From a virus (lineage: Duplodnaviria; Caudoviricetes), in the IMG/VR virus record IMGVR_UViG_3300050505_000145, positions 1 to 53,265 of that record: a stretch of 53,265 nt of DNA; one strand, given 5' to 3'. This document shows positions 1 to 32,369 of the stretch, piece after piece; within the stretch, counting starts at the first letter, position 1, and every line of letters begins with the position of its first letter. The position numbers and the translations under genes are program-made. The notes under the pieces are model-generated. The model was not told the DNA's origin, did no database searches, and saw nothing but the letters and a program-made list of their open reading frames with translations.

Positions 1-314
1 AACATCGCCTTCTCTTCGGCGCGATGCTGTTGCTCCTGCCACGCATCCTCGAGTTGGCAGTGAATCGACTTGGCGATCTCACCGTCGAATTCGAACTTCT
101 TGCTCGGACCGGTCGACGTAACCTCGGCGCGATAGACTCCCTGGAATTCCGTGATCGTCAGGAAGTTCTCCTTGTCGACAGGACCATCCGGCGTTCCGGA
201 CGTCCCGAAGATCTTCCACTCGACGACGACAGTGGGATCCGCACCTTTCGTTGTCCACTCACGACGAGAGACCACGTCAGCGCGATACGGTCCGATCTTG
301 TTGGTAGCAGTCAT
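1..314 (-). CDS. hypothetical protein, 3'-truncated by the window edge (MTATNKIGPYRADVVSRREW...)
   Basis: Not in ORF track; ATG at 314 preceded by GGGAGG-TTAGAAG; frame open to position 1 by manual translation. Confidence 0.8.
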   Translation of the reverse strand, partial: MTATNKIGPYRADVVSRREWTTKGADPTVVVEWKIFGTSGTPDGPVDKENFLTITEFQGVYRAEVTSTGPSKKFEFDGEIAKSIHCQLEDAWQEQQHRAEEKAM

Positions 315-315
315 C

Positions 316-376
316 TTCTAACCTCCCGACGCCCATCACTGGGCGTTTCGGCCTTCCGGCCTCGTCAGGGAAGGAA
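316..376 (-). ncRNA. type I hammerhead ribozyme HHR1; predicted cleavage after GUC between 328 and 327
   Basis: Minus strand: UUCCUUCC CUGACGA GGCC-GGAA-GGCC GAA ACGCCCA-GUGA-UGGGCGU C / GGGAGGUUAGAA; full CUGANGA/GAAA/UH core and three pairable stems. Confidence 0.93.
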
Positions 377-452
377 TCAACCACACGATCCGTCGTTCCA
401 CATATTGGTGGAAATACGGATCTCCGATGGGAAAGAACAGTGATTTGAACAT
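336..452 (-). CDS. possible 38-aa ORF (MFKSLFFPIGDPYFHQYVERRIVWLIPSLTRPEGRNAQ) reading into HHR1
   Basis: ATG overlaps upstream stop (TAATG); stop lies in the HHR1 stem III loop; could instead be a non-coding hairpin. Confidence 0.3.
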   Translation of the reverse strand: MFKSLFFPIGDPYFHQYVERRIVWLIPSLTRPEGRNAQ

Positions 453-697
453 TACACCGTCTCCTCGGTTACCGACGCATGGAACGCATACAGATCAATC
501 GTGATCTGCAGCTGATTCTCCGACTTCGGATCCATCTGCACGAACTGCTTCTGATCCGCGACCAGCTTGTCGCGATAGGCTTTCGCCTCTTCGAGTGACT
601 GGAAGACCTCGAAGGAATCCTGAACAGGTTCCCGCAGGTCGAGCCACTTGAATGTCAGAACCCATAGCGATCCAGGTTTCCGATTGGTAGCACTCAT
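452..697 (-). CDS. hypothetical protein (81 aa)
   Basis: ATG preceded by GGGAGG SD that belongs to HHR2. Confidence 0.85.
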   Translation of the reverse strand: MSATNRKPGSLWVLTFKWLDLREPVQDSFEVFQSLEEAKAYRDKLVADQKQFVQMDPKSENQLQITIDLYAFHASVTEETV

Positions 698-698
698 C

Positions 699-760
699 TT
701 CTAACCTCCCGACCGCGCTCGTCGCGCGGTTTCGCCATTCCTGGCTCATCAGGAGAGGAA
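699..760 (-). ncRNA. type I hammerhead ribozyme HHR2; predicted cleavage between 711 and 710
   Basis: Minus strand: UUCCUCUC CUGAUGA GCCA-GGAA-UGGC GAA ACCGCGC-GACGA-GCGCGGU C / GGGAGGUUAGAA. Confidence 0.95.
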
Positions 761-952
761 CTACGCTGCTTGCTTGAACACCTGCGCGACCGTCGCCATG
801 ACGGTCGTCAGATGCCAGCAGTGACGGTAGAACCGCCATCCGCTGCACGTGCAATAGATGACGCCGTCCTTGCCGAGTCGAACCTCGTGCATCTTGTTCG
901 AGGACTTCGACGCGAACGTCGCCAACACAGTCTTGGTAGCCTTCTTCAACAT
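761..952 (-). CDS. stand-alone SWIM zinc-finger protein
   Basis: CTCSGWRFYRHCWH = CxC-xn-CxH; SD from HHR3. Confidence 0.85.
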   Translation of the reverse strand: MLKKATKTVLATFASKSSNKMHEVRLGKDGVIYCTCSGWRFYRHCWHLTTVMATVAQVFKQAA

Positions 953-953
953 T

Positions 954-1020
954 TTCTGACCTCCCGACGCGGAGTAGACAACTCCGCGTTTCGTCCTTCT
1001 GGACTCCTCAGGAGAGGAAC
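954..1020 (-). ncRNA. type I hammerhead ribozyme HHR3; predicted cleavage between 966 and 965
   Basis: Minus strand: UUCCUCUC CUGAGGA GUCC-AGAA-GGAC GAA ACGCGGAGU-UGUCU-ACUCCGCGU C / GGGAGGUCAGAA. Confidence 0.95.
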
Positions 1021-1464
1021 TTACTTCCGGCGCTTGGGACCGTTCTTCACAGTCACCTCGGTCGGCTGCTCGGCGGGAACGACCTCACCGACGCCTTCCT
1101 TCGGATCGATCACGAAGCCGTCCTTGTCGACGACGTCGCCCTCGACCACGCGCTCCTGGCTCTTGACGGGCTCAGGAGCCGCCGGAGCCTGCGGAACGGA
1201 CGTGAACGAGACGCGACGCGTCCCGCCCTCGTTCGCCTCGCGCGGAACCCAGCCATTGTCCAGGGACTCCTGGACGCGAGCCTTGAACCGCGCCTCCGCC
1301 GCCTCGGCGTTGTCGAAGTTCTCCTGGCAACCGGTGAGCGCCTTCATCCCGGGATTCTTGATGGAGACGCCGACGTTGAAGCCGGTCTTGCCCTCGTGAG
1401 CGTAGACCTTGAGCTTCGAACCGGCCGAACGGAACTTCGCTTCGCGCATGAACTTGGTAGCCAT
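1021..1464 (-). CDS. hypothetical protein, possibly WGR-like domain plus low-complexity tail
   Basis: AAAGGGAG SD; C/G-ending codon bias; FDNAEAAEARF...LDNGW resembles the WGR C-terminal helix (weak). Confidence 0.8.
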   Translation of the reverse strand: MATKFMREAKFRSAGSKLKVYAHEGKTGFNVGVSIKNPGMKALTGCQENFDNAEAAEARFKARVQESLDNGWVPREANEGGTRRVSFTSVPQAPAAPEPVKSQERVVEGDVVDKDGFVIDPKEGVGEVVPAEQPTEVTVKNGPKRRK

Positions 1465-1469
1465 TGTGA

Positions 1470-1895
1470 CACTCCCTTTCGACAGAGGTCGGAATTGACC
1501 TCTGACGCTCCTGGGCTTGTGGAGCCAGGACGCGCTTTACCGACGCTCACACATTGCGAGCGTCGCCACTCAGCTTGGGAGATTGCTACCGCAGCTAGCT
1601 GAACCGACTCGGGGACTCGAGGTCATCGCCATTCCTGGTTACTCAGAAATTTCACCAGGACTTTGGAGGCACTGGCCCATAGGGCGCTGGCTTTCTTCTC
1701 CGGCTTTCCTGCGGATTTCGCAGGCTCGTCCTACCGCGCTTACGTTCAGCGGTCGCCGCTTATTTGGCTCTTGGATTCGGGACAGCCCCGACCCACCAGG
1801 GAGCGCTTAGGTTTTCAGAGAGCCGAGGATTGGCCGCGAGGGCCGCTTACCAATCCCCTTGGGCTAGTCGCCCGCAGGCCCGAACCGAACTTACA
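1470..1895 (-). ncRNA. long structured 5' leader / candidate novel ncRNA
   Basis: No convincing ORF; dense hairpins (CAGAGGUC/GACCUCUG, CGACGCUCGC/GUGAGCGUCG, UCCUGGU/ACCAGGA, CCUGCG/CGCAGG, GGCUCU/AGAGCC) between a promoter and the first SD. Confidence 0.65.
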
Positions 1896-1900
1896 CCACT

Positions 1901-1928
1901 ATCATACCCTACCTGCTGCGAAAGTAAA
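1901..1928 (-). promoter_or_regulatory. sigma70-like promoter of the ribozyme operon
   Basis: TTTACT-N16-TATGAT immediately upstream of the structured leader. Confidence 0.6.
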
Positions 1929-2507
1929 GCTGCTTTATTCAACAAAGTGACTGATTCCTTAGGGATTTGCCAGGCTTTTTGAAGAATGTGGAGTTTTGCT
2001 AAGGAAAATCATCGATGTTTACGAATGTTTACACAATGACTCGGTTTCTAGGCTCCTACCCGTAAGATAGACTGCTGCCTATACTTACGATTTTGAGGGC
2101 TCCCAGCCGACCCCAGCACATCTCCAAACCGCCAACGGCCCTATACCCTTTGGGGTCTCCGTTTGCCTCGCCACGGGCTCCCAATACGGCCTCGGGTTGC
2201 GGAGAGCAGGCCGACGGTTTTCGTGAAAGCCAAACTTATGGGCTATTCGGCAACAAGGAGAGCAGGTCAAGAGTTTTCGTCGACCTACAGAACCGTCGGT
2301 TTGTAAAGCCCAAACGACCGAAAGTTTACACAATCGCTCACTTTCGCATTCGGGCCAGCAGCTCTCCAGAACGGCAATAGCCTACCGTATCATCTAGCTC
2401 GAATTGAGAGGACCTTGGGTCGGTGCAGAGGTCTATCCAAATCTCCTGTGTTTGCTGTCCGAACTATCCGAAAGTCCTGCGTATCTGAAAGAAACAGCAA
2501 ACTTCTC

Positions 2508-2548
2508 GAACGAATCTGATTTATTTCTACAACAAGTCGTAGTATACT
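2508..2548 (+). promoter_or_regulatory. phage promoter motif (GAACGAATC...TCGTAGTATACT)
   Basis: TCGTAGTATACT recurs at 4222 and 51771; ATG lies 7 nt after the -10, suggesting a leaderless mRNA. Confidence 0.65.
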
Positions 2549-2555
2549 AGGTGTA

Positions 2556-2756
2556 ATGAACTTTCAGTTACAAAGTGATCTGACGCGAGCTATCCTGCGA
2601 CGAATCCGCGCCGAACAGGAGAAGACCGAACTGGAAGGCAACTGCTCGAACTGTGAAGTGAAACTCACATCGACGGACATTGCCGTTGGTGAATGCACGT
2701 CGTGTGGTGAACCAATCACATCATTCGATTTCGCGGTGGTTAATGAGCGTCGCTGA
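2556..2756 (+). CDS. small zinc-ribbon protein
   Basis: CSNC...CTSC pair; follows promoter motif. Confidence 0.7.
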   Translation: MNFQLQSDLTRAILRRIRAEQEKTELEGNCSNCEVKLTSTDIAVGECTSCGEPITSFDFAVVNERR

Positions 2757-3654
2757 AGAATCTCTCGAGAAACTCTTCGAAGCAATGGACTTCCTGCGGA
2801 AGGAACAGCGTCAGCCAAAAGTTCTGCTCAATCTTCGTCTAGAAGAACGATTGCAGTGGACCACCGACATCGTTTCACTCGAACGTGCGGATCCGTTCTA
2901 CTGGAACTCGCGAACAGTCAATCTGGTCAACTCCACACTCGACAGCTTCCAGCTCGAGGAAATAGATTGCTCTCGCCACGTTCTGTCGTGTGACGTCGCA
3001 TGGCATTGGTTCGCTGAGAATCCTCCGTTCGAGATCGAGGAAATCTCAAAGACTCGGATGATTCCTGTGCGTGCGATCACGTGGTATTGGTTCGGTCGTT
3101 TCGGCCAACCATATCTTGGCGCGACCGCGTGGGGTCAGTCCGCAGTCTACGATTCGACCGGACTGTTCACCGGACCAGTCCATCCAATCCTCTGGACGTG
3201 CGTCAATGCTGGTGACAAGCTGAGTCAGCGGATCAAGGACGGCGAGCTTCACTTCGTCGGATATACCGACGAGCGAACCGAACTTGAATCACGACTTCTA
3301 ATGAAGTGGGTCGTCGCTTCGTCAACGTTCTTGCGCCAGGAAATCCTTCCGGTCGAGAAGACTGAAGTTTCTCGTCACGCTCGGAAACGGATTGAGAAGC
3401 GTGGTCACAAGACGCGAACGATTCAAGTCGTTCAGTTGCGCAAGACTCATTCGGAACGGACGGAGCCAGATGAAAACCGTGAAGTCTGTCATCGATATCA
3501 AGACTATCGCGGATGGGTTCGCGGTCACGTCCGGAAGCAATGGTATGCGACGCTCGGTGAGCACCTTCCTGTGTTCATCTCGCCTTTCCTCAAAGGTCCT
3601 GAAGGAAAGCCGATCCGACCACGGACCACGCCAATCTTCTCGGTGACGAAATGA
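2743..3654 (+). CDS. conserved phage hypothetical protein
   Basis: Start revised to ATG 2743; C-terminal WVRGHVRKQWY...ISPFLKGP motif common in phage proteins. Confidence 0.8.
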   Translation: MSVAEESLEKLFEAMDFLRKEQRQPKVLLNLRLEERLQWTTDIVSLERADPFYWNSRTVNLVNSTLDSFQLEEIDCSRHVLSCDVAWHWFAENPPFEIEEISKTRMIPVRAITWYWFGRFGQPYLGATAWGQSAVYDSTGLFTGPVHPILWTCVNAGDKLSQRIKDGELHFVGYTDERTELESRLLMKWVVASSTFLRQEILPVEKTEVSRHARKRIEKRGHKTRTIQVVQLRKTHSERTEPDENREVCHRYQDYRGWVRGHVRKQWYATLGEHLPVFISPFLKGPEGKPIRPRTTPIFSVTK

Positions 3655-3842
3655 CCACTCTCAGTCCGTATCTGGAGAGTCGCGTGAAGCGACTGAAGCA
3701 ACTCGCTAATCTGGTGCGCGAGGACGAAATTGGTAATCTCGCGATAGAGGAATTGGATGGATTGGCCGAGTTCCTGGACGAAACGGCGAGAGAGATCGAA
3801 TCACTCGACGCGAAAATTCAGCATCTGCAGGATGAGAAATGA
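3651..3842 (+). CDS. hypothetical coiled-coil protein
   Basis: ATGA-type overlaps with neighbours. Confidence 0.7.
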   Translation: MTTLSPYLESRVKRLKQLANLVREDEIGNLAIEELDGLAEFLDETAREIESLDAKIQHLQDEK

Positions 3843-4177
3843 GTGATGACTCTCCAGTCTGGCATACGCATGTCAAGGTGGTTGACATCCGCTACACAAA
3901 GAAAGATGGTTGGTTTGCCTTGTTCGAGGAGCCAGACGGCACCACAACATGGATGAACCAACCGGTGAAGCCAACAATTGGCGACGAGCAAATCCTCTAC
4001 ATGATCAAAGCGGATTCGGAGGAAAGTCGTCAGATGACTGCGTTGGCCAAACGAGGTGCGTCTCAGGAAGAAGCAGAACAATTTCTGAAGGACGTGTTGG
4101 AGCGCTATGGTGCAGTGTGTCACCATACATGGGACGAAGCACGAGCACTCATCCACAACACGAAACGACCGCATTGA
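3839..4177 (+). CDS. hypothetical protein
   Basis: ATGA overlap with the upstream gene; ends before the next promoter. Confidence 0.7.
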   Translation: MSDDSPVWHTHVKVVDIRYTKKDGWFALFEEPDGTTTWMNQPVKPTIGDEQILYMIKADSEESRQMTALAKRGASQEEAEQFLKDVLERYGAVCHHTWDEARALIHNTKRPH

Positions 4178-4192
4178 TCGTGAAGGAAATCT

Positions 4193-4234
4193 GAACGAAT
4201 CCTGAACCGCGTCCGAGGATTTCGTAGTATACTT
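4193..4234 (+). promoter_or_regulatory. phage promoter motif copy
   Basis: GAACGAATC at the same spacing to TATACT as at 2508; 17-mer GATTTCGTAGTATACTT identical to 51767-51783. Confidence 0.65.
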
Positions 4235-4250
4235 GTAGGCGTATCGGTTC

Positions 4251-4673
4251 ATGACTATCGCGTTCACCGGAACAAGACGTGGGATGACTCCTGCGCAATA
4301 CGAGAGGGTCGGATTCGTCTTCCGACATCTGGCTGCGTCAGAGCTGTCCCATGGTGGTTGTGTCGGAGCGGATCGCGAAGCGCACCAGATTGGTGGTGCA
4401 ATGCGGATCCGAGTCTTTCCGTCCAACGACGAGCAACGCCACTGGGCGCTGCTCGAAGCACGACCAACACCAATCTCAATCGAACATGTGCAAGATCCAC
4501 TGCGAAGAAACAAGATTATGGTGGATCGGAACGATGTTCTCGTTGCAGCACCAGCCAAGATGGGCGAATTGCTTCGGTCTGGGACCTGGATGACCATCCG
4601 ATATGCTCGCAAGATGAAGCGTCCGGTCTACATCTGCTGGCCGGACGGAACTGTCACCGAGGAGAAACGATGA
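4251..4673 (+). CDS. SLOG (DprA/YpsA-like) nucleotide-binding protein
   Basis: IAFTGTR, HGGCVGAD, RRNKIMVD, SGTWMTIRYA motifs. Confidence 0.75.
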   Translation: MTIAFTGTRRGMTPAQYERVGFVFRHLAASELSHGGCVGADREAHQIGGAMRIRVFPSNDEQRHWALLEARPTPISIEHVQDPLRRNKIMVDRNDVLVAAPAKMGELLRSGTWMTIRYARKMKRPVYICWPDGTVTEEKR

Positions 4674-5689
4674 AGTTCTTCTCGTTCCCGTCTAGCTCGA
4701 ATCCGAAGCTCACGCATCAGGTCTCGGTCTATCCTGATGGGAAGATCACCTGCACGTGCATGGGATTCAAGACTCCGACGAAATGCTGGCATGTCAAGCA
4801 GATCGCCGAGAAGGAAGGTCTCACCGTCGTCATTGGTGGTGAACTCATCCGTCCCACTGCTCCAGTCGAGCAACCTCAGAGTCTGTTCGAGTCGTTGGCA
4901 ATCCCCATCAAGCCGATGCTTGCATCTGGGATGAAAGACGATGAGGAGCTGAGCGACTTCGATCCCGACAAGTATGTTGGCGAGATCAAATACGATGGTC
5001 AGCGGATGATCATCCAGCGTGATGACGAAATCACAGCGTGGAGTCGCGCTGGCAACATCCGTCGTTTGTCGTCAAAGATCATCAAAGCTATCGAGGAAAT
5101 GCCATATGGGATCTACGATAGTGAGTTGATGATTCCTGGTGGCGTGAGCACGGATGTCGTCCGTCTGGATCTGCTAGAGAAATCGGAGCTCGTTCTGTTC
5201 GACATCATGCGAGTAGCTGGTCATTCCTGCACCAGCGAACCGCTTCGCGAGCGACGCAAACTCCTCGAAGCTGCAGTCGTCAACATTCCGAAGAAGAGTC
5301 CGGTCACGATCTCCGAGCAGTTCCGTCCGTCAGAGCAAGAACTCAAGAAGATCTGGGATGCTGGTGGTGAGGGAGCTGTCCTGAAGAAGTGGATGTCACA
5401 ATATCAGGATGGATATCGTTCGAAGGACTGGGTCAAGGTCGTCCAGGAATTTGCTGGTGAAGCAGTCATCACCGAGTTTAAGGAAGGACGTCTCGGTCCT
5501 CATTCCATCATCGTCGCCGTCGACAAGGATGGCGTCCAAGTGCGGATGAAGACGCTCAACGATGCGTGGCGAGTGGACTTCGCACTGAATGCTGCGAAGT
5601 ATATCGGACGAACGATTCGGTTCAAGTATCGGGAGAAGACTCGGGACAAGAAGAAATATCGCCATCCGATGGCTGATCATATCCTCTAA
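4670..5689 (+). CDS. ATP-dependent DNA ligase with N-terminal SWIM zinc finger
   Basis: Start revised to ATG 4670 (GAGGAG SD); motif I EIKYDGQR, YDSEL, LFDIM, EGAVLK, RSKDWVK; N-terminal CTC...CWH. Confidence 0.88.
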   Translation: MKFFSFPSSSNPKLTHQVSVYPDGKITCTCMGFKTPTKCWHVKQIAEKEGLTVVIGGELIRPTAPVEQPQSLFESLAIPIKPMLASGMKDDEELSDFDPDKYVGEIKYDGQRMIIQRDDEITAWSRAGNIRRLSSKIIKAIEEMPYGIYDSELMIPGGVSTDVVRLDLLEKSELVLFDIMRVAGHSCTSEPLRERRKLLEAAVVNIPKKSPVTISEQFRPSEQELKKIWDAGGEGAVLKKWMSQYQDGYRSKDWVKVVQEFAGEAVITEFKEGRLGPHSIIVAVDKDGVQVRMKTLNDAWRVDFALNAAKYIGRTIRFKYREKTRDKKKYRHPMADHIL

Positions 5690-6030
5690 CGTTCGGATTC
5701 ATATCGCCATCGTTCGAGTCGTTGGATTCTCTGTCGCAACTCACGATCGCGATTCAGTTGCCACAATTCGACCTGGGATTGCTGACGATTCTTGGTGTCT
5801 GGTGGCGCATACAGAGTCCGATAGATCTGGTCAAGTTCCTCTCGAAGTGCGTTATCTTTGATCTCCCTCGTCTTGATCTCTTGCTGTAATTCAATCGTCA
5901 GAAGTCTTGTACGAAAATCAAGACGATAGAGAATTCGTGCTGCCAGAATAACGAGAGCCAACATCATTCCAGCCATGAAGATTTCGATTGACCAGAGCAT
6001 GATGCGACGAACGACTATCGGTCGAAGCAT
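5686..6030 (-). CDS. membrane-anchored coiled-coil protein (spanin/holin-like candidate)
   Basis: Start revised to 6030 (GAGGAG SD); N-terminal TM then coiled coil; last gene of the late region. Confidence 0.6.
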   Translation of the reverse strand: MLRPIVVRRIMLWSIEIFMAGMMLALVILAARILYRLDFRTRLLTIELQQEIKTREIKDNALREELDQIYRTLYAPPDTKNRQQSQVELWQLNRDRELRQRIQRLERWRYESER

Positions 6031-6329
6031 CGTTGTCTCTCCTCTTGACTCTTCGCGACATTCGAACAAATTCGTTGCAGAAGACGGAATGTTGCTTCAG
6101 ACTGCGTTACTTCTGATTGATACAACAATTGATTCTTCTCGGAAGCAATCCGCAGTGCTGTTAGTTCGGCTTGAATGGCTGGGAGTGTTTGAGCACCAAT
6201 GTAGATCAGATATGAGAGCAGAGTTCCAGGAATCCCAACAATGGCGACCACTCGAGCCCACATGGGAAGACTCGAGAAGATCCCATTCTCTTCACGCGAA
6301 CGACGTTCCGGTCCTTCATATTTCGGCAT
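6015..6329 (-). CDS. single-TM membrane protein (holin-like candidate)
   Basis: MPKYEGPERRS start, TM segment WARVVAIVGIPGTLLSYLIYIG, coiled coil. Confidence 0.6.
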   Translation of the reverse strand: MPKYEGPERRSREENGIFSSLPMWARVVAIVGIPGTLLSYLIYIGAQTLPAIQAELTALRIASEKNQLLYQSEVTQSEATFRLLQRICSNVAKSQEERQRCFDR

Positions 6330-6334
6330 AAAGC

Positions 6335-6363
6335 GGGACCGGCCACGGATGAGAGCCGGTCCC
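6335..6363 (-). terminator. GC-rich hairpin (terminator or processing stem)
   Basis: GGGACCGGC/GCCGGTCCC 9-bp stem, followed by GCTTT on the minus strand. Confidence 0.45.
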
Positions 6364-6407
6364 ATGTCCAAGAAGGTATCTTTGACTACTTCATCTGGAT
6401 CACCTCC

Positions 6408-7256
6408 TCACTCAATCTTCTTCGAACTGACTCCGTTGACAGCATCGACCACCTGCTCCAGATTCAGATGGCCGACGTCGCTCGTCGACTTCTTTCGCCA
6501 CGAATCAATGGAATCGATCACGAGATGCGCTTCGTCGCAGTAAGCACCCATCGCATCCCAAGTCACGAGTCGATTCGGCAATCCCCAGGTGTCGTCGACG
6601 TAGACTCCTTCCTCGGAGTATCCGTTGGCCCACATCGAGTGGCCACCCCACGACCCAGCCATCCACTGACCTGTGAACTGCTTGTCGGGAGGAACATCCC
6701 AGTGCGCCGGCGGATCAACACCCTGCCAGGCGGCTGGCAGATTGAGACAGATCGCGATTCCCTTCGCTTCGGCGAGAGCAAGTGCTGCCTTCATCTGATC
6801 ATGATTCTGCGCGTCGATACGCAGATATGCGTCAATGGTGTAGGGATGTCCCTGATCGTCACGGATGGTGGTGTCTTCCTTCCGCCACTGGTCAAGAGCA
6901 TCCTCTTCGTATGCGCCCTGGTCACCACCACCGTAGAGGCGATTCTCCATGTCCTCGTAGACACGAATGACTTCCTCGTCAGTGATGTTGATGAGTTTAT
7001 GCTGCTCGAGCTCCTCCATCCGAAGAATGGCCATTGCCTGCTTGGCTCGAGTGCAGTCTCCCAACTGGGTGTTCCCGAACGATCGTGGCGGAAGAGCAGG
7101 TTTCTTCTGCCAGTAGATGCAATGCTTCGGGATCTTGATGAACTGGAAGAAGTCGCTGAACTGGAGTGCCTTCCGAGACACTTTCGCCGGCATGCGTCCG
7201 AGTCGTCGTTCCGGAACTACGATCTTCTCGTTGGTGTGTTGCTGTTCATTCGCCAT
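6408..7256 (-). CDS. papain-like (C1-type) cysteine peptidase
   Basis: Start revised to 7256 (GGAGGG SD); GNTQLGDCT (Cys), GGHSM (His), DTWG motifs. Confidence 0.7.
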   Translation of the reverse strand: MANEQQHTNEKIVVPERRLGRMPAKVSRKALQFSDFFQFIKIPKHCIYWQKKPALPPRSFGNTQLGDCTRAKQAMAILRMEELEQHKLINITDEEVIRVYEDMENRLYGGGDQGAYEEDALDQWRKEDTTIRDDQGHPYTIDAYLRIDAQNHDQMKAALALAEAKGIAICLNLPAAWQGVDPPAHWDVPPDKQFTGQWMAGSWGGHSMWANGYSEEGVYVDDTWGLPNRLVTWDAMGAYCDEAHLVIDSIDSWRKKSTSDVGHLNLEQVVDAVNGVSSKKIE

Positions 7257-13113: not shown

Positions 13114-15573
13114 CTAAGCTGCTGGGAACAGACGTTGAGATTTCAATTGACGCATGATAATATCACTGATCTTTCGAGCGCTGTCTTCTGCTGTTCCATT
13201 CACATAGATATGATTCGTTATCGCAACACTGTTCGAAGCAGCAGATGGTGGTGACGTTCCGTGTGGATAGACAGCACTCCCGATTGGCATTCGAACAACT
13301 TCAGGACCACCTTCGCCAACCATGACGTCAACAACACCACCAGATTGGAATCCGGGGATCTTGGGACCTTGTGGTGGCGGAAGAGGACCACTCGAACCGG
13401 ATTTCATGTTCGCGAAAATCGCAAGAATCTCTTGGAACGAATATCCTTGCTGGGCCAACCGATAGGCCATGTTCATGTCGATATTCGATCCCTGACCAGA
13501 AGGATTCCATCCGCCGGACGTTATGACATTCTGCAGTGCTTGTTGGAAGTTCTGTGACGTGACGTTGAATGAACCACCGAGTGCTCGAGTCTTCGCGATT
13601 TGCGCGTCCAAGTCTTTATCGAGTTTGTCGAGATAAGTCAGATAGTTCTGCGCACCGTCAGCTGCTGCCTTATGCGCAATGACCGACTCGTGTCCATAGT
13701 TTCGGATAGCATCTTGCAGATCCATGATCTTCTGCTTTTGCGCATCCCAAACATCTCGTGAGAAGGTGAGACTGCTGCCAAACATCTTGTCCCACACATC
13801 TTGCGCATCTTTCAATTGACCTTCGAGCACTTCACGAGATTTCTCTCGAACTGATGACCAGTCCTTGTTCAGTGCTTCAGTCTTTTCGGCAGCAATTGAG
13901 TTGATGAGATTGTATTGCTTGGTCCACTCATCACCAACTGCTTTGATGTTGTCAATTGCGGTTTCGCGCCACAGCTCGATCTTATTCTTCTGATGTTGTA
14001 ACGATGTTGTCGAGTTCTGATCAAGCAGATCGTAATACTCATCCCACAGTTTTGTGGATTCAACAACGACCTGATCCTGATATTTCAATTCCTCGGCAAC
14101 TGCCTTGACTTGATGCTGCGTTGCACCAAGATAGATTGCGATCTTGTCTTGTGCAACACCTGCCTTAACAAGCAACTCTATGTTTTCAAGAAGTGACTGA
14201 TCCATCTGGTCGATTGTTTCACGCCAACCAGCACCAGCACTCTCGACTTCTTTCTGAGCTTCGGTGTATTTCTTTGTTTCCTTGTCGAGTTCCTTGAATC
14301 CTTCCTTGAGTTGATTGACTTGCTGAGATGTGAGACCAAGTGCTTTGGCGATATTGTCAGTGCTGACACCAGCATCAACCATGTCTTTCGCGAGACCCTT
14401 GGTTGCGTCATCGATGCCTGATATGTCAACACCTTCAAATGCTTTGTTTACAGCATCCCAGGCATCAGCATATCGAACAGCTTCAGCTTCTGCTGATCTC
14501 AGTTCCGCAGCAAGATCGTGGACTTCATCGACTGTCAAACCTGTTTGCTCAGCAACAACTTTCTGATTGAAGCCAAGTTTTAACATGCTTGTTGCGACGA
14601 TTTCAGCTTGCTCGCCAAGATCCTTGCTCTCTTCCGATGCATCTTTCCACAACTTGTTGACTGTATCCTGAACAGCAGCAAGTCGTTCTTCTTCGTTTGC
14701 TGTTTCGCCGAAAAGTCCTTTAAGTGCTACCCATCCACCAGATATGAGACCACCAAGATCCGCGATATGTTCGAACGCGAGAACAGTTCGAGAAGCCACT
14801 TCGATGAGAGCTGTCATTGCTGGTAACAACGAAACACCAATCGTTGTCACCATAGTTTGGAATTCCACTCCAAGAGTTTTGGTTGACTCCTGGAATTCCT
14901 CACTTGCTTTCACGTCTTCGTCGGTCCACACATAGGCAACTTCTTTGGCCTTCTCTTGCAGATCATCGAAGTTCTTCAGAAGGAATGGCATATTCTCGCG
15001 AGCGCCACGACCCATGACTGCGATTGCATCAGACATGAGGGTGGTGCTGCCAGCGGAATTGTGCATCGCTTCCGAGAGCAACTTGATTCGTTCGGTAGGA
15101 TCTGAATCACGGAACGCATCAGCACTGACACCGAGATGGCCAAGTGCCGCATCAAACTTTTCAGCTGCTGGTCCAGTCGCGTCCATACGACGCTGCATCT
15201 GGAACAACATGTTCTGGAGACTGTCAAGACTACTTCCACCAATTTGCGCAGTCGCAGCAAGCTGTCCAACACTGTCGACTGCAGCACCAGTCAGACGAGA
15301 GAAGTTGAGAACATTCTCACCAGCTTCCGATGCCTTCTCTGCGAACTCGAAGCACGCAACAGCAGCACCAGTGAGAGCCGCGCCGACACCAAGAACACCA
15401 GTGCCGAATTCAGCAAACTTCTCACCCATCCCGCCGACAACTTCAGATACCTCGCCAAATCCCGGGATGACACGATCGACGAAGTTCTTGACTCCGTCAA
15501 ACGCTTTACTGAGAACAGCTGTCCAGTCGTCGATCAGTTCGAGTCGACCAGATGCGTTTCCAACTTCTGCCAT
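13114..15573 (-). CDS. tape measure protein
   Basis: 819 aa, helical Ala/Glu-rich; follows G/GT chaperones; C-terminal FQSGG...VGEGGPEVV motif. Confidence 0.9.
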   Translation of the reverse strand: MAEVGNASGRLELIDDWTAVLSKAFDGVKNFVDRVIPGFGEVSEVVGGMGEKFAEFGTGVLGVGAALTGAAVACFEFAEKASEAGENVLNFSRLTGAAVDSVGQLAATAQIGGSSLDSLQNMLFQMQRRMDATGPAAEKFDAALGHLGVSADAFRDSDPTERIKLLSEAMHNSAGSTTLMSDAIAVMGRGARENMPFLLKNFDDLQEKAKEVAYVWTDEDVKASEEFQESTKTLGVEFQTMVTTIGVSLLPAMTALIEVASRTVLAFEHIADLGGLISGGWVALKGLFGETANEEERLAAVQDTVNKLWKDASEESKDLGEQAEIVATSMLKLGFNQKVVAEQTGLTVDEVHDLAAELRSAEAEAVRYADAWDAVNKAFEGVDISGIDDATKGLAKDMVDAGVSTDNIAKALGLTSQQVNQLKEGFKELDKETKKYTEAQKEVESAGAGWRETIDQMDQSLLENIELLVKAGVAQDKIAIYLGATQHQVKAVAEELKYQDQVVVESTKLWDEYYDLLDQNSTTSLQHQKNKIELWRETAIDNIKAVGDEWTKQYNLINSIAAEKTEALNKDWSSVREKSREVLEGQLKDAQDVWDKMFGSSLTFSRDVWDAQKQKIMDLQDAIRNYGHESVIAHKAAADGAQNYLTYLDKLDKDLDAQIAKTRALGGSFNVTSQNFQQALQNVITSGGWNPSGQGSNIDMNMAYRLAQQGYSFQEILAIFANMKSGSSGPLPPPQGPKIPGFQSGGVVDVMVGEGGPEVVRMPIGSAVYPHGTSPPSAASNSVAITNHIYVNGTAEDSARKISDIIMRQLKSQRLFPAA

Positions 15574-20736: not shown

Positions 20737-20746
20737 GATTCCTCCC

Positions 20747-30788: not shown

Positions 30789-32369
30789 TCACCAGGTCGC
30801 GGAGTATCGTTTCTTCTTCGGAGGTTCCGGAGCGACCGAGAGCATTACTGCCTCGGCACGATTCGGCGACGGAATCCCACGATTCTTTGCTTCTCCTTTG
30901 CTCTCGATCTGAATCTTGCCGGACGAGAGTCGCTTGTAGCGAATCTCGACCAGCTCGCCAGCTAGATCATCATCAAAAGCATCGATGTCGATGAGTCCTT
31001 TCTCGAACAACGTGCGCAGCCACCAGTACAACTGAGCTCGAAGATTCATGAATCCCTCGGGATCCATTCCTTCTTCGATGTCGAAGCACTCAGCAGGCCA
31101 TGGTGCCTCACCGACATTGATGCCGATGACTGGTTGCTTGAGCTCCTTGGCACGGTCAGCGATGCCACGACCGATACCAATCATGTCGACTTTCGCGAGA
31201 GTTGCATTCTTGCTCTTGAGGAAACCAATCAGTAGACCACACGTCTGCATCGTGTCGGGATTGTGATCCTCGTTGATAATGCGCACCACTCCACCACGAC
31301 GATGAGCAACAGTGGACGCATCACCACCAGCACCGACGTCCTGACCGAGATGATTAGCTCCTTCGGGTTTCAGTGTGCGAGTCTGAGCAGCACGAATCCA
31401 AGAAATCGGGATGAGACCACCAGAATCAGCATGCTCCGGAAAGAGACCGAGGATCTTGCTCTGCCAATAGGGATTCGTGTCCTCTGATCGCGCTCCTTCA
31501 GGAGGAACGCACTTGACTCCCTGCGCTGGCTCGCATGGCTGTCCGTCTCGGTCAACCCAGATCCAGTTCGATGCCCACTTGCGTCGTTTCTCTTCGACGT
31601 ATGTGTGACCAATCAGCAGTTGACTGAGGTGCTCGGGGATTGGTTCACCTGTGAAGTTGGGAGTGTCGAAAGCACTGAACTCGACGACAGCCCACCCGGA
31701 TCCTGGCTTGCTGGCTTCGAAGAACTCGCCAGAGGGATCGTCAGGATTTCCTGTGACGACGATCTTGCTGTTGTCGTTGGCGATGAGCGAATCCGCGGCC
31801 TCCCAAAGAGGACCACGAATACCATTTCCTTCATCGAAGATGACCAGAACGAAGAGAGCATGGATGCCTTGAAACGCATCGGGATTGTACTCGTCAGGTT
31901 TCCGCCCGAATGCGACGAGTTCCTCCTTGTCGCCGACAGGCAGATACCACTCGGTCTTGTTGGTTCGTCCCGCTAATTTCCCGCGCGTATGCGCGCGCCT
32001 GATCTCGCGCCATAATATAGCCTTGACCTGGCTTGCTGTAGGCGCGGACGTGACAACGAATGCTGAGCCAACGGGATGACTGTCGATCCACCACGCTGCC
32101 AACAATGCGTCAACGTAAGACTTGCCCATCTCATGGCAGGTCTTGATCGCTGTCCGCCGATTCATGGCAACAGTTGTAAGAATCTTGCGCTGACCAGACC
32201 ACAGGAATGCCTTCATCCGATGTTCTGCCCACAGATCCGGGTCACGAACATACTGCCGACGAAGGATTTCCTTCTCTATCCTGTGATACTGTTCACGAAT
32301 CTCTTCGAAAGACGGTGGTGGAGTGATGGAGGTCGGGATCTCGAGGATTGAGCTCGAGGAAGTGGTCAA
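30789..32369 (-). CDS. terL: terminase large subunit
   Basis: CHEMGKS Walker A, IFDEG Walker B, TGNP, GQDVG nuclease Asp, SPNRAEA. Confidence 0.92.
   Translation of the reverse strand: MTTSSSSILEIPTSITPPPSFEEIREQYHRIEKEILRRQYVRDPDLWAEHRMKAFLWSGQRKILTTVAMNRRTAIKTCHEMGKSYVDALLAAWWIDSHPVGSAFVVTSAPTASQVKAILWREIRRAHTRGKLAGRTNKTEWYLPVGDKEELVAFGRKPDEYNPDAFQGIHALFVLVIFDEGNGIRGPLWEAADSLIANDNSKIVVTGNPDDPSGEFFEASKPGSGWAVVEFSAFDTPNFTGEPIPEHLSQLLIGHTYVEEKRRKWASNWIWVDRDGQPCEPAQGVKCVPPEGARSEDTNPYWQSKILGLFPEHADSGGLIPISWIRAAQTRTLKPEGANHLGQDVGAGGDASTVAHRRGGVVRIINEDHNPDTMQTCGLLIGFLKSKNATLAKVDMIGIGRGIADRAKELKQPVIGINVGEAPWPAECFDIEEGMDPEGFMNLRAQLYWWLRTLFEKGLIDIDAFDDDLAGELVEIRYKRLSSGKIQIESKGEAKNRGIPSPNRAEAVMLSVAPEPPKKKRYSATW

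Follow-up and report, generated by a model that had tools for sequence, protein, structure and literature searches.

Tandem hammerhead ribozyme motifs of an uncultured soil phage share a stem I strand with the Shine-Dalgarno sequence of the following gene

Introduction

Serial hammerhead ribozymes are common in phages and already known. The main text of Perreault et al. 2011 (PMC3088659) describes several hammerheads flanking single genes, or small groups of them, in prophages, proposes that they process long phage RNAs into mRNAs the length of a gene, and reports that three tandem arrays cut themselves in vitro and one did so in Escherichia coli. Here we describe a series of type I hammerhead motifs in IMG/VR record IMGVR_UViG_3300050505_000145, an uncultured tailed phage from soil; the whole stretch analysed, which is the 53,265 nucleotides (nt) of this record, is referred to as the window. 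Three motifs, HH-A, HH-B and HH-C, lie on its minus strand. Like the arrays presented in the main text of PMC3088659, they are strung out along a single strand, with small, variable phage genes between them. The 3' strand of stem I is here the Shine-Dalgarno (SD) sequence of the next gene, and the distance from the cut to the AUG is 13 nt; in an unselected phage sample, described below, the SD lies outside stem I in all but one of the matches listed, and the distance is mostly 18-45 nt. The main text of PMC3088659 holds no mention of a Shine-Dalgarno or ribosome-binding site.

Passages of PMC7445771 describe engineered E. coli switches built on type I hammerheads, in which the SD sits in an extended stem I and cleavage turns translation on. 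The phage elements resemble these switches in that the SD is paired in stem I and, according to folding predictions, exposed by cleavage. The switches presented in those passages are artificial, with an aptamer on stem III and an extended stem I, whereas the phage elements are natural and aptamer-less and have the SD directly at the cut. A full-text literature search found no natural hammerhead with the SD in stem I, although one might be mentioned in supplements or journals beyond its reach. Arrays of this kind were published in 2011 and are not new in themselves; what is unusual is the overlap of SD and stem I.

According to a passage of a 2019 review (PMC6765202), the roles of bacterial ribozymes are still largely elusive. 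Most phage copies keep ribozyme and ribosome-binding site apart, so any link to translation is indirect; here they are the same six nucleotides. This overlap would tie RNA self-cutting directly to translation, and it makes the role of phage hammerheads testable by reporter. If true, the cut-to-translate reading tentatively put forward below would at last give at least one class of bacterial and phage hammerheads a biological role, and would provide a natural precedent for synthetic hammerhead ribosome-binding-site switches and insulators.

Three type I hammerhead motifs overlap Shine-Dalgarno sequences

The three elements of the window and their downstream starts are as follows.

960..1017, minus strand: hammerhead A (HH-A); stem I 5' strand 1017-1012 (CCUCUC), C3 at 1011, C17 at 966, GGGAGG at 965-960; predicted cut between 966 and 965; downstream AUG at 952-950
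705..758, minus strand: hammerhead B (HH-B); stem I 5' strand 758-753 (CCUCUC), C3 at 752, C17 at 711, GGGAGG at 710-705; predicted cut between 711 and 710; downstream AUG at 697-695
322..374, minus strand: hammerhead C (HH-C); stem I 5' strand 374-369 (CCUUCC), C3 at 368, C17 at 328, GGGAGG at 327-322; loop III GUGA; predicted cut between 328 and 327; downstream AUG at 314-312

All three contain the core CUGANGA and GAAA, the A15.1-U16.1 pair and a GUC triplet, with G, U and C, respectively, at position N7. Stem II and its 4-nt loop read GUCC-AGAA-GGAC in HH-A, GCCA-GGAA-UGGC in HH-B and GGCC-GGAA-GGCC in HH-C, while stem III comprises 9, 7 and 7 pairs that start at A15.1-U16.1 and differ in sequence in every copy. 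In each case GGGAGG forms the 3' strand of stem I and at the same time the SD of the next gene, from whose AUG it is separated by a 7-nt spacer; the AUG thus lies 13 nt from the cut, and the 3' products are predicted to begin at 965, 710 and 327. The same hexamer stands before two window genes lacking a ribozyme (at 20746 and 17282; spacers of 4 and 6 nt, respectively), which indicates that GGGAGG is a real SD in this phage.

Each element had as its minimum free energy fold the three-way junction in which stems II and III are closed and stem I is open (z = -3.0, -3.0 and -2.7 for HH-A, HH-B and HH-C). A strict descriptor requiring the core, at least 3 pairs in stem II, at least 4 in stem III, at least 4 in stem I and H17 matched three times in the window, compared with a mean of 0.005 matches in 200 dinucleotide shuffles, only one of which contained any match. 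A loose pattern without the stems gave 7 matches where 4.5 are expected and is not significant alone. No additional copy was found in the window at E <= 1 with a covariance model built from the family. By their sequence and predicted fold, the window elements are bona fide type I hammerhead motifs.

A first inspection of the letters alone, hereafter the sequence-only reading, had placed complete type I hammerheads in three minus-strand gaps, and core, junction fold and descriptor statistics agree with it. It had also noted that stems II and III vary between copies and still pair, which is borne out for HH-A, HH-B and HH-C and by the covariation of 24 family members, and had predicted a cut directly before GGGAGG with the AUG 7 nt further on and RNA ends at 965, 710 and 327; these coordinates match ours. 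The Rfam search that it proposed had a divided outcome: a scan of the whole window at gathering thresholds returned no match, but sub-threshold matches to Hammerhead_1 and HH9 were recovered. In E-value mode HH-A aligned end to end with Hammerhead_1 (RF00163) at 23.9 bits (E 0.0095; gathering score 34), and HH-B reached 18.6 bits against HH9, the gathering score of which is 52. The window copies have their core and topology in common with Hammerhead_1, HH9 and RAGATH-1-hammerhead. Membership of the last family was considered and rejected (22.7 bits against a gathering score of 56.3), as was HH-C as a type III hammerhead, for which the only match was mismatched, of the wrong topology and at 16 bits. 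With scores so far below the gathering scores, standard annotation misses the window copies, and viral metagenomes probably contain more elements of this kind than are annotated.

Stems II and III are short plain hairpins, with neither a ligand-sensing aptamer nor a match to a riboswitch family in Rfam. Lacking an aptamer, the ribozymes of the window are presumably constitutive.

The array continues in related contigs

A metagenome scan recovered two related contigs, L156 and L129. The former is 99.2% identical to window positions 1-6752, reaches 6.8 kb past position 1 and contains five hammerheads. Its order is gene 1 (147 amino acids, aa), HH-A, gene 2 (63 aa), HH-B, gene 3 (81 aa), a spacer, HH-C and gene 4 (119 aa), followed by HH-D, gene 5 (67 aa), gene 6 (41 aa), HH-E and gene 7 (63 aa). 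The core is intact in all five copies, and in every one of them GGGAGG pairs at six of six positions with the upstream hexamer. HH-D combines U15.2-A16.2 with an AUC triplet where the other copies have C-G and GUC; at the level of sequence, this change is compensatory and affects the base of stem III. The sequence-only reading had expected the array to run past position 1, as the five ribozymes of L156 show it does, and its proposal to search related contigs yielded more cassettes, in L156 and in the recurrent sub-family described below.

The near-identical phages L150 (1745-2134) and L156 (6798-6879) are one "hammerhead + 87-aa CxxC gene" unit apart, with breakpoints inside the hammerheads. 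L156 6798-6879 aligns with two separate segments of L150, and HH-D of L156 is composed of the ribozyme body of one L150 copy and the leader of the next. This suggests that the ribozyme repeats are cassette recombination points. In L150, an open reading frame (ORF) of 87 codons (1802-2065, minus strand) reads across both stem I and the core, CUGAUGAG, of the hammerhead at 1767-1823 (minus strand) and has its UGA stop in loop II; translation and ribozyme folding must compete at this hammerhead.

Covariation in the family

RNAalifold recovered the hammerhead junction from an alignment of 24 sequences, and 12 of its 17 pairs had changes on both sides, that is, compensatory changes. The covariation score was 0.521, compared with 0.195 in shuffles (reached by 0 of 500) and 0.08-0.13 when the pairing partners were slid. 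Paired cells amounted to 95.3%, compared with 78.5% in shuffles (reached by 0 of 500) and 42-48% with slid partners. The descriptor by which the rows were selected demands pairing and so inflates this percentage, though not the compensatory changes. Both A15.1-U16.1 and G10.1-C11.1 were present in 24 of the 24 sequences, and the core columns were invariant, with N7 variable. C17 was found in all, and the triplet was GUC in 24 of 26 unique sequences and AUC in the other two.

Distribution of the overlap among phages

To place the window arrangement among phage hammerheads, we scanned IMG/VR, without selection, with the pattern CUGAUGAG...CGAAAC...GUC. At least 120 stretches matched, with at least 137 unique type I hammerheads at no fewer than 84 loci, many in arrays of 3-6. 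Among the matches listed for this sample, 100 of 137 had their first ORF-opening start codon 18-45 nt beyond the cut, and an SD core fell within the 3' strand of stem I in a single case (L033) and outside it in the remaining 136. The arrangement of the window, with the SD as a strand of stem I and the AUG 13 nt from the cut, is therefore the unusual part.

Regarding the general layout, the listed phage matches (L007-L126) had a 6-bp stem I, usually an A, a linker, the SD and the start. Of 136 listed matches of the unselected sample, 62 had an upstream ORF whose stop codon overlapped stem I or came no more than 5 nt from it. Arrays of 4-6 copies were seen in L008, L044, L048, L063, L079 and L106.

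A second, targeted scan looked for the hammerhead pattern followed by GGGAGG, with the 5' strand of stem I left unspecified. Matches were found in 3 viral, 39 metagenome and 2 genome stretches, for a total of 44 unique sites, four of which belong to the window's own lineage and are not independent. The upstream hexamer paired with GGGAGG at six of six positions in 28 of the 44, and at five or more consecutive positions in 32, when by our own estimate the chance of a six-of-six pairing is about 0.8% per site. Among the 32 sites with a paired stem I, ATG was found 5-11 nt after GGGAGG in 27 and GTG in 2, and in 3 an ATG lay at 2 nt. By comparison, only one of the 12 sites without stem I pairing had an ATG at 5-11 nt, and this one (L153) is a hammerhead with a single stem I mismatch.

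The 5' strand also changed with the SD. When the SD variant was GGAGG, the 5' strand was CCUCC in 7 of 7 viral matches, five of which had an ATG 8-10 nt further on, and AGGAGG was accompanied by CCUCCU in L174. Four other AGGAG matches had no stem I and look like chance. Judged from these sequences, the SD variant and the 5' strand opposite it in stem I change together, and the elements form a recurrent sub-family of about 30 GGGAGG members plus those with GGAGG and AGGAGG.

Five members (L004, L128, L132, L133 and L165) are of a pseudoknot type, in which CCCGG, located 1 nt upstream of stem I, is complementary to CCGGG in loop II. They likewise use GGGAGG as the 3' strand of stem I and as the SD, so the overlap is present in more than one structural sub-type. 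Pseudoknot-containing hammerheads are the subject of PMC11300833; the likeness is with these five and not with the window copies, which lack a separate strand for a pseudoknot and have 4-nt loops II (AGAA, GGAA and GGAA). In L128, the covariance model alone found one more copy, the third, at 2488-2543.

Predicted cleavage and unmasking of the Shine-Dalgarno sequence

We then folded the five units of the array with a partition function. The mean probability of the SD being unpaired was 0.03-0.10 in the uncut RNA, compared with 0.37-0.99 in the free 3' product. The model thus predicts an SD that is masked 90-97% before cleavage and largely free afterwards, in line with the earlier proposal that the SD is hidden in stem I and freed on cleavage. 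In the same folding, the two cleavage products associate by only -6 to -9 kcal/mol, which by our own conversion corresponds to dissociation constants of about micromolar, and the products should therefore part at cellular RNA concentrations.

Hammerhead cleavage leaves a 5'-OH on the 3' product and a 2',3'-cyclic phosphate on the upstream product. Polycistronic phage RNA would be cut at GUC (AUC in HH-D), directly 5' of the GGGAGG of the next gene. Before the cut, the 5' strand of stem I, CCUCUC or CCUUCC, would act as an anti-SD mimic and keep the ribosome-binding site paired, while after it only six intermolecular pairs would be left and the products would separate. The downstream unit would start with 5'-OH-GGGAGGU and have its AUG 13 nt from the end, and the upstream unit would have at its end the ribozyme body, still folded, with a 2',3'-cyclic phosphate. 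The outcome would be mRNAs of one or two genes, the translation of each unit being turned on by its own cleavage. We infer the catalysis, the RNA ends and the effects on translation and stability from a locus whose motif, covariation, SD overlap and compact stop-ribozyme-SD-start layout are established at the level of sequence.

In phage T7, RNase III sites between the cistrons of the early genes turn the polycistronic RNA into defined units. The sequence-only reading had the ribozymes replace this processing in an early transcript. The replacement holds as an analogy only: the T7 system uses a host protein, has another end chemistry and involves no catalytic RNA. Nothing supports "early"; the sole promoter-like site occurs at chance level.

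Weighing the proposed mechanism and its alternatives

Taking sequence and folding together, we consider it probable that the elements are active type I hammerheads, five in the array, which self-process the polycistronic RNA, and that cleavage switches on the translation of each unit. Several observations weigh against this. Rfam returned no hammerhead at gathering thresholds, and the alignment rows were chosen with a descriptor that requires pairing. The variation in stem I was mostly one-sided, from G-C to G-U, which is explained by the SD strand being fixed by the search pattern. Stem I has only 6 base pairs, and a recognised tertiary contact between it and loop II is not demonstrated. Such a contact is needed for fast hammerhead cleavage at cellular Mg2+, so activity under these conditions is not assured. 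Loop II was GGAA in 12 of 26 unique sequences, and mostly another 4-nt loop in the remainder; a docking of this loop onto stem I, at the CC:GG end, is a conjecture of ours. A stop codon lies 1-5 nt upstream, and a ribosome terminating there would open stem I without any cleavage: seated on the 5' strand, it would transiently free the SD (coupling) and would also block ribozyme folding. Translation and folding may likewise compete where ORFs enter HH-C and one L150 ribozyme. Lastly, a 5' end placed right at the SD leaves no upstream standby sequence, so cleavage might bring no gain in translation.

The ribozymes could instead serve processing only. Cutting would be fast, constitutive and cotranscriptional, the SD would lie in stem I through genome compaction and without any gating, and the benefit would be defined ends (a 5'-OH and, on the 3' side, the ribozyme as a cap that bears the cyclic phosphate) and uncoupled cistron stability. 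The usual phage layout, where among the matches listed the start follows the cut by 18-45 nt in 100 of 137 and the SD is inside stem I in 1 of 137, argues for this, since masking is then not needed for the general role of phage hammerheads; so do the very tight intergenic spaces, 19 of 27 members of the SD-type set having the stop codon at a distance of -1 to 12 nt from stem I. But the overlap recurs in GNRA-loop and pseudoknot types and with three SD variants, which suggests selection over accident, and the SD is predicted to stay 90-97% paired until the cut, so that we hold processing alone to be rather unlikely. The same adjacency of stop codons lends itself to translational coupling, in which stem I would mainly keep the SD hidden until its 5' strand is melted by a ribosome terminating at the neighbouring upstream stop, with cleavage secondary or a back-up. 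Stops lie 3, 2, 5 and 1 nt before stem I of HH-A, HH-B, HH-D and HH-E and -1 to 5 nt from it in 14 of 27 members of the SD-type set (adjacency was counted from ORFs, since the stem I strands themselves can end in TAA), and one L150 ORF ends within the next ribozyme. For coupling, however, a plain hairpin would suffice, yet 11 core positions, A15.1-U16.1 and H17 are kept in every copy; no sizeable ORF ends beside HH-C, and the same stop-abutting layout is found in ordinary hammerheads with the SD outside stem I. We regard coupling as the principal role as doubtful, and less likely than processing.

A role at the DNA level, with the ribozyme repeats acting as recombination boundaries that shuffle gene cassettes among related phages, would fit the difference of one ribozyme and one 87-aa gene between L150 and L156, with its breakpoints within hammerheads, and the variable nature of hammerhead-flanked genes described in the main text of Perreault et al. 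(PMC3088659). Recombination, however, needs neither a conserved catalytic core nor compensatory stem changes, and a single indel is an anecdote and a by-product of any repeat; this explanation seems to us very improbable. That the elements are inactive relics or chance look-alikes, GC-rich hairpins beside SDs with no catalysis, might be argued from the lack of Rfam matches at gathering thresholds and from the short stem I with no demonstrated tertiary contact. It is scarcely credible given three descriptor matches where a shuffle gives 0.005, and a core intact in five of five array copies and in 24 aligned members with covarying stems. Within our preferred reading, of self-processing hammerheads that switch on translation, we tentatively put forward a more specific and more speculative form: a protein-free cut-to-translate module. 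Here the ribozyme would be both processing site and translational ON switch, and every small gene would yield an insulated mRNA of its own, with a 5'-OH at the SD and the ribozyme body plus cyclic phosphate as a 3' cap; ribosomes at the stop codon would compete kinetically with folding, and the units would be cassettes that phages can exchange.

Genomic setting and genes of the array

The window covers the whole of the IMG/VR record, which is linear and has a CheckV completeness estimate of 69%. The hammerhead unit is located at the left end of the window, in a minus-strand run of small genes that starts after an ORF-free region (1465-2555). This region is a divergent gap of about 60% GC that separates the unit from plus-strand genes.

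30789-32369, minus strand: large terminase
13114-15573, minus strand: tape-measure protein
4358-5689, plus strand: DNA ligase
1465..2555, minus strand: ORF-free region of 1.1 kb upstream of the array, with no ORF of at least 120 aa

The ORF-free region is presumed to hold the promoter and leader of the minus-strand transcription unit. A promoter scan of window positions 1-2700 found one sigma-70-like site (1928-1901), where 0.8 are expected by chance, and a terminator scan of the same positions found none. On the minus strand, 1465-1900 folded with z = -3.0, and the region had no match to an Rfam family in gathering or E-value mode; it may be a long structured leader or a novel non-coding RNA. 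A tRNA scan found none, and blastn of window positions 1-2600 against cultured-phage records gave no match. In the scan of genome contigs for the hammerhead pattern with GGGAGG, two stretches were found, and the one tabulated had no stem I pairing, so no host was identified. A search of sequencing runs for the array sequence matched only six DNA runs, from rhizosphere metagenomes, with no RNA run among those listed.

The genes of the array and its spacer are the following.

1021..1464, minus strand: gene 1, 147 aa; first of the unit, with an ordinary SD (GGGAG) and no ribozyme in front
761..952, minus strand: gene 2, 63 aa; CxC...CxH; AUG 7 nt after the SD
452..697, minus strand: gene 3, 81 aa; AUG 7 nt after the SD; without a significant match in Pfam or PHROG
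375..451, minus strand: spacer, about 75 nt long, that separates gene 3 from HH-C
3..314, minus strand: gene 4, cut off by the contig end; 119 aa in L156

The TAA stop of gene 1 lies 3 nt before stem I of HH-A, and the TAG stop of gene 2 lies 2 nt before that of HH-B. The products are small ORFans. Gene 1 had no significant Pfam or PHROG family and no relative among viral contigs, and a search for homologues of gene 4 among 5.8 billion clusters returned only itself. Across the cassette proteins, Pfam and PHROG gave nothing over their cut-offs, with weak SWIM, zinc-ribbon, WGR and SPOB_ab hints; one of these is the likeness of gene 2 to a SWIM zinc finger (E 0.072, below the cut-off). Several of the cassette proteins of 41-87 aa have two CxxC or CxC...CxH pairs and are zinc-ribbon-like (window 761-952, minus strand; L156 6869-7449, plus strand).

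The spacer between gene 3 and HH-C is the sole gap of the array without tight packing. A 38-codon ORF (336-452, minus strand) begins there at a TAATG that overlaps the stop of gene 3 and reads into HH-C, and this ORF and spacer may be a gene remnant.

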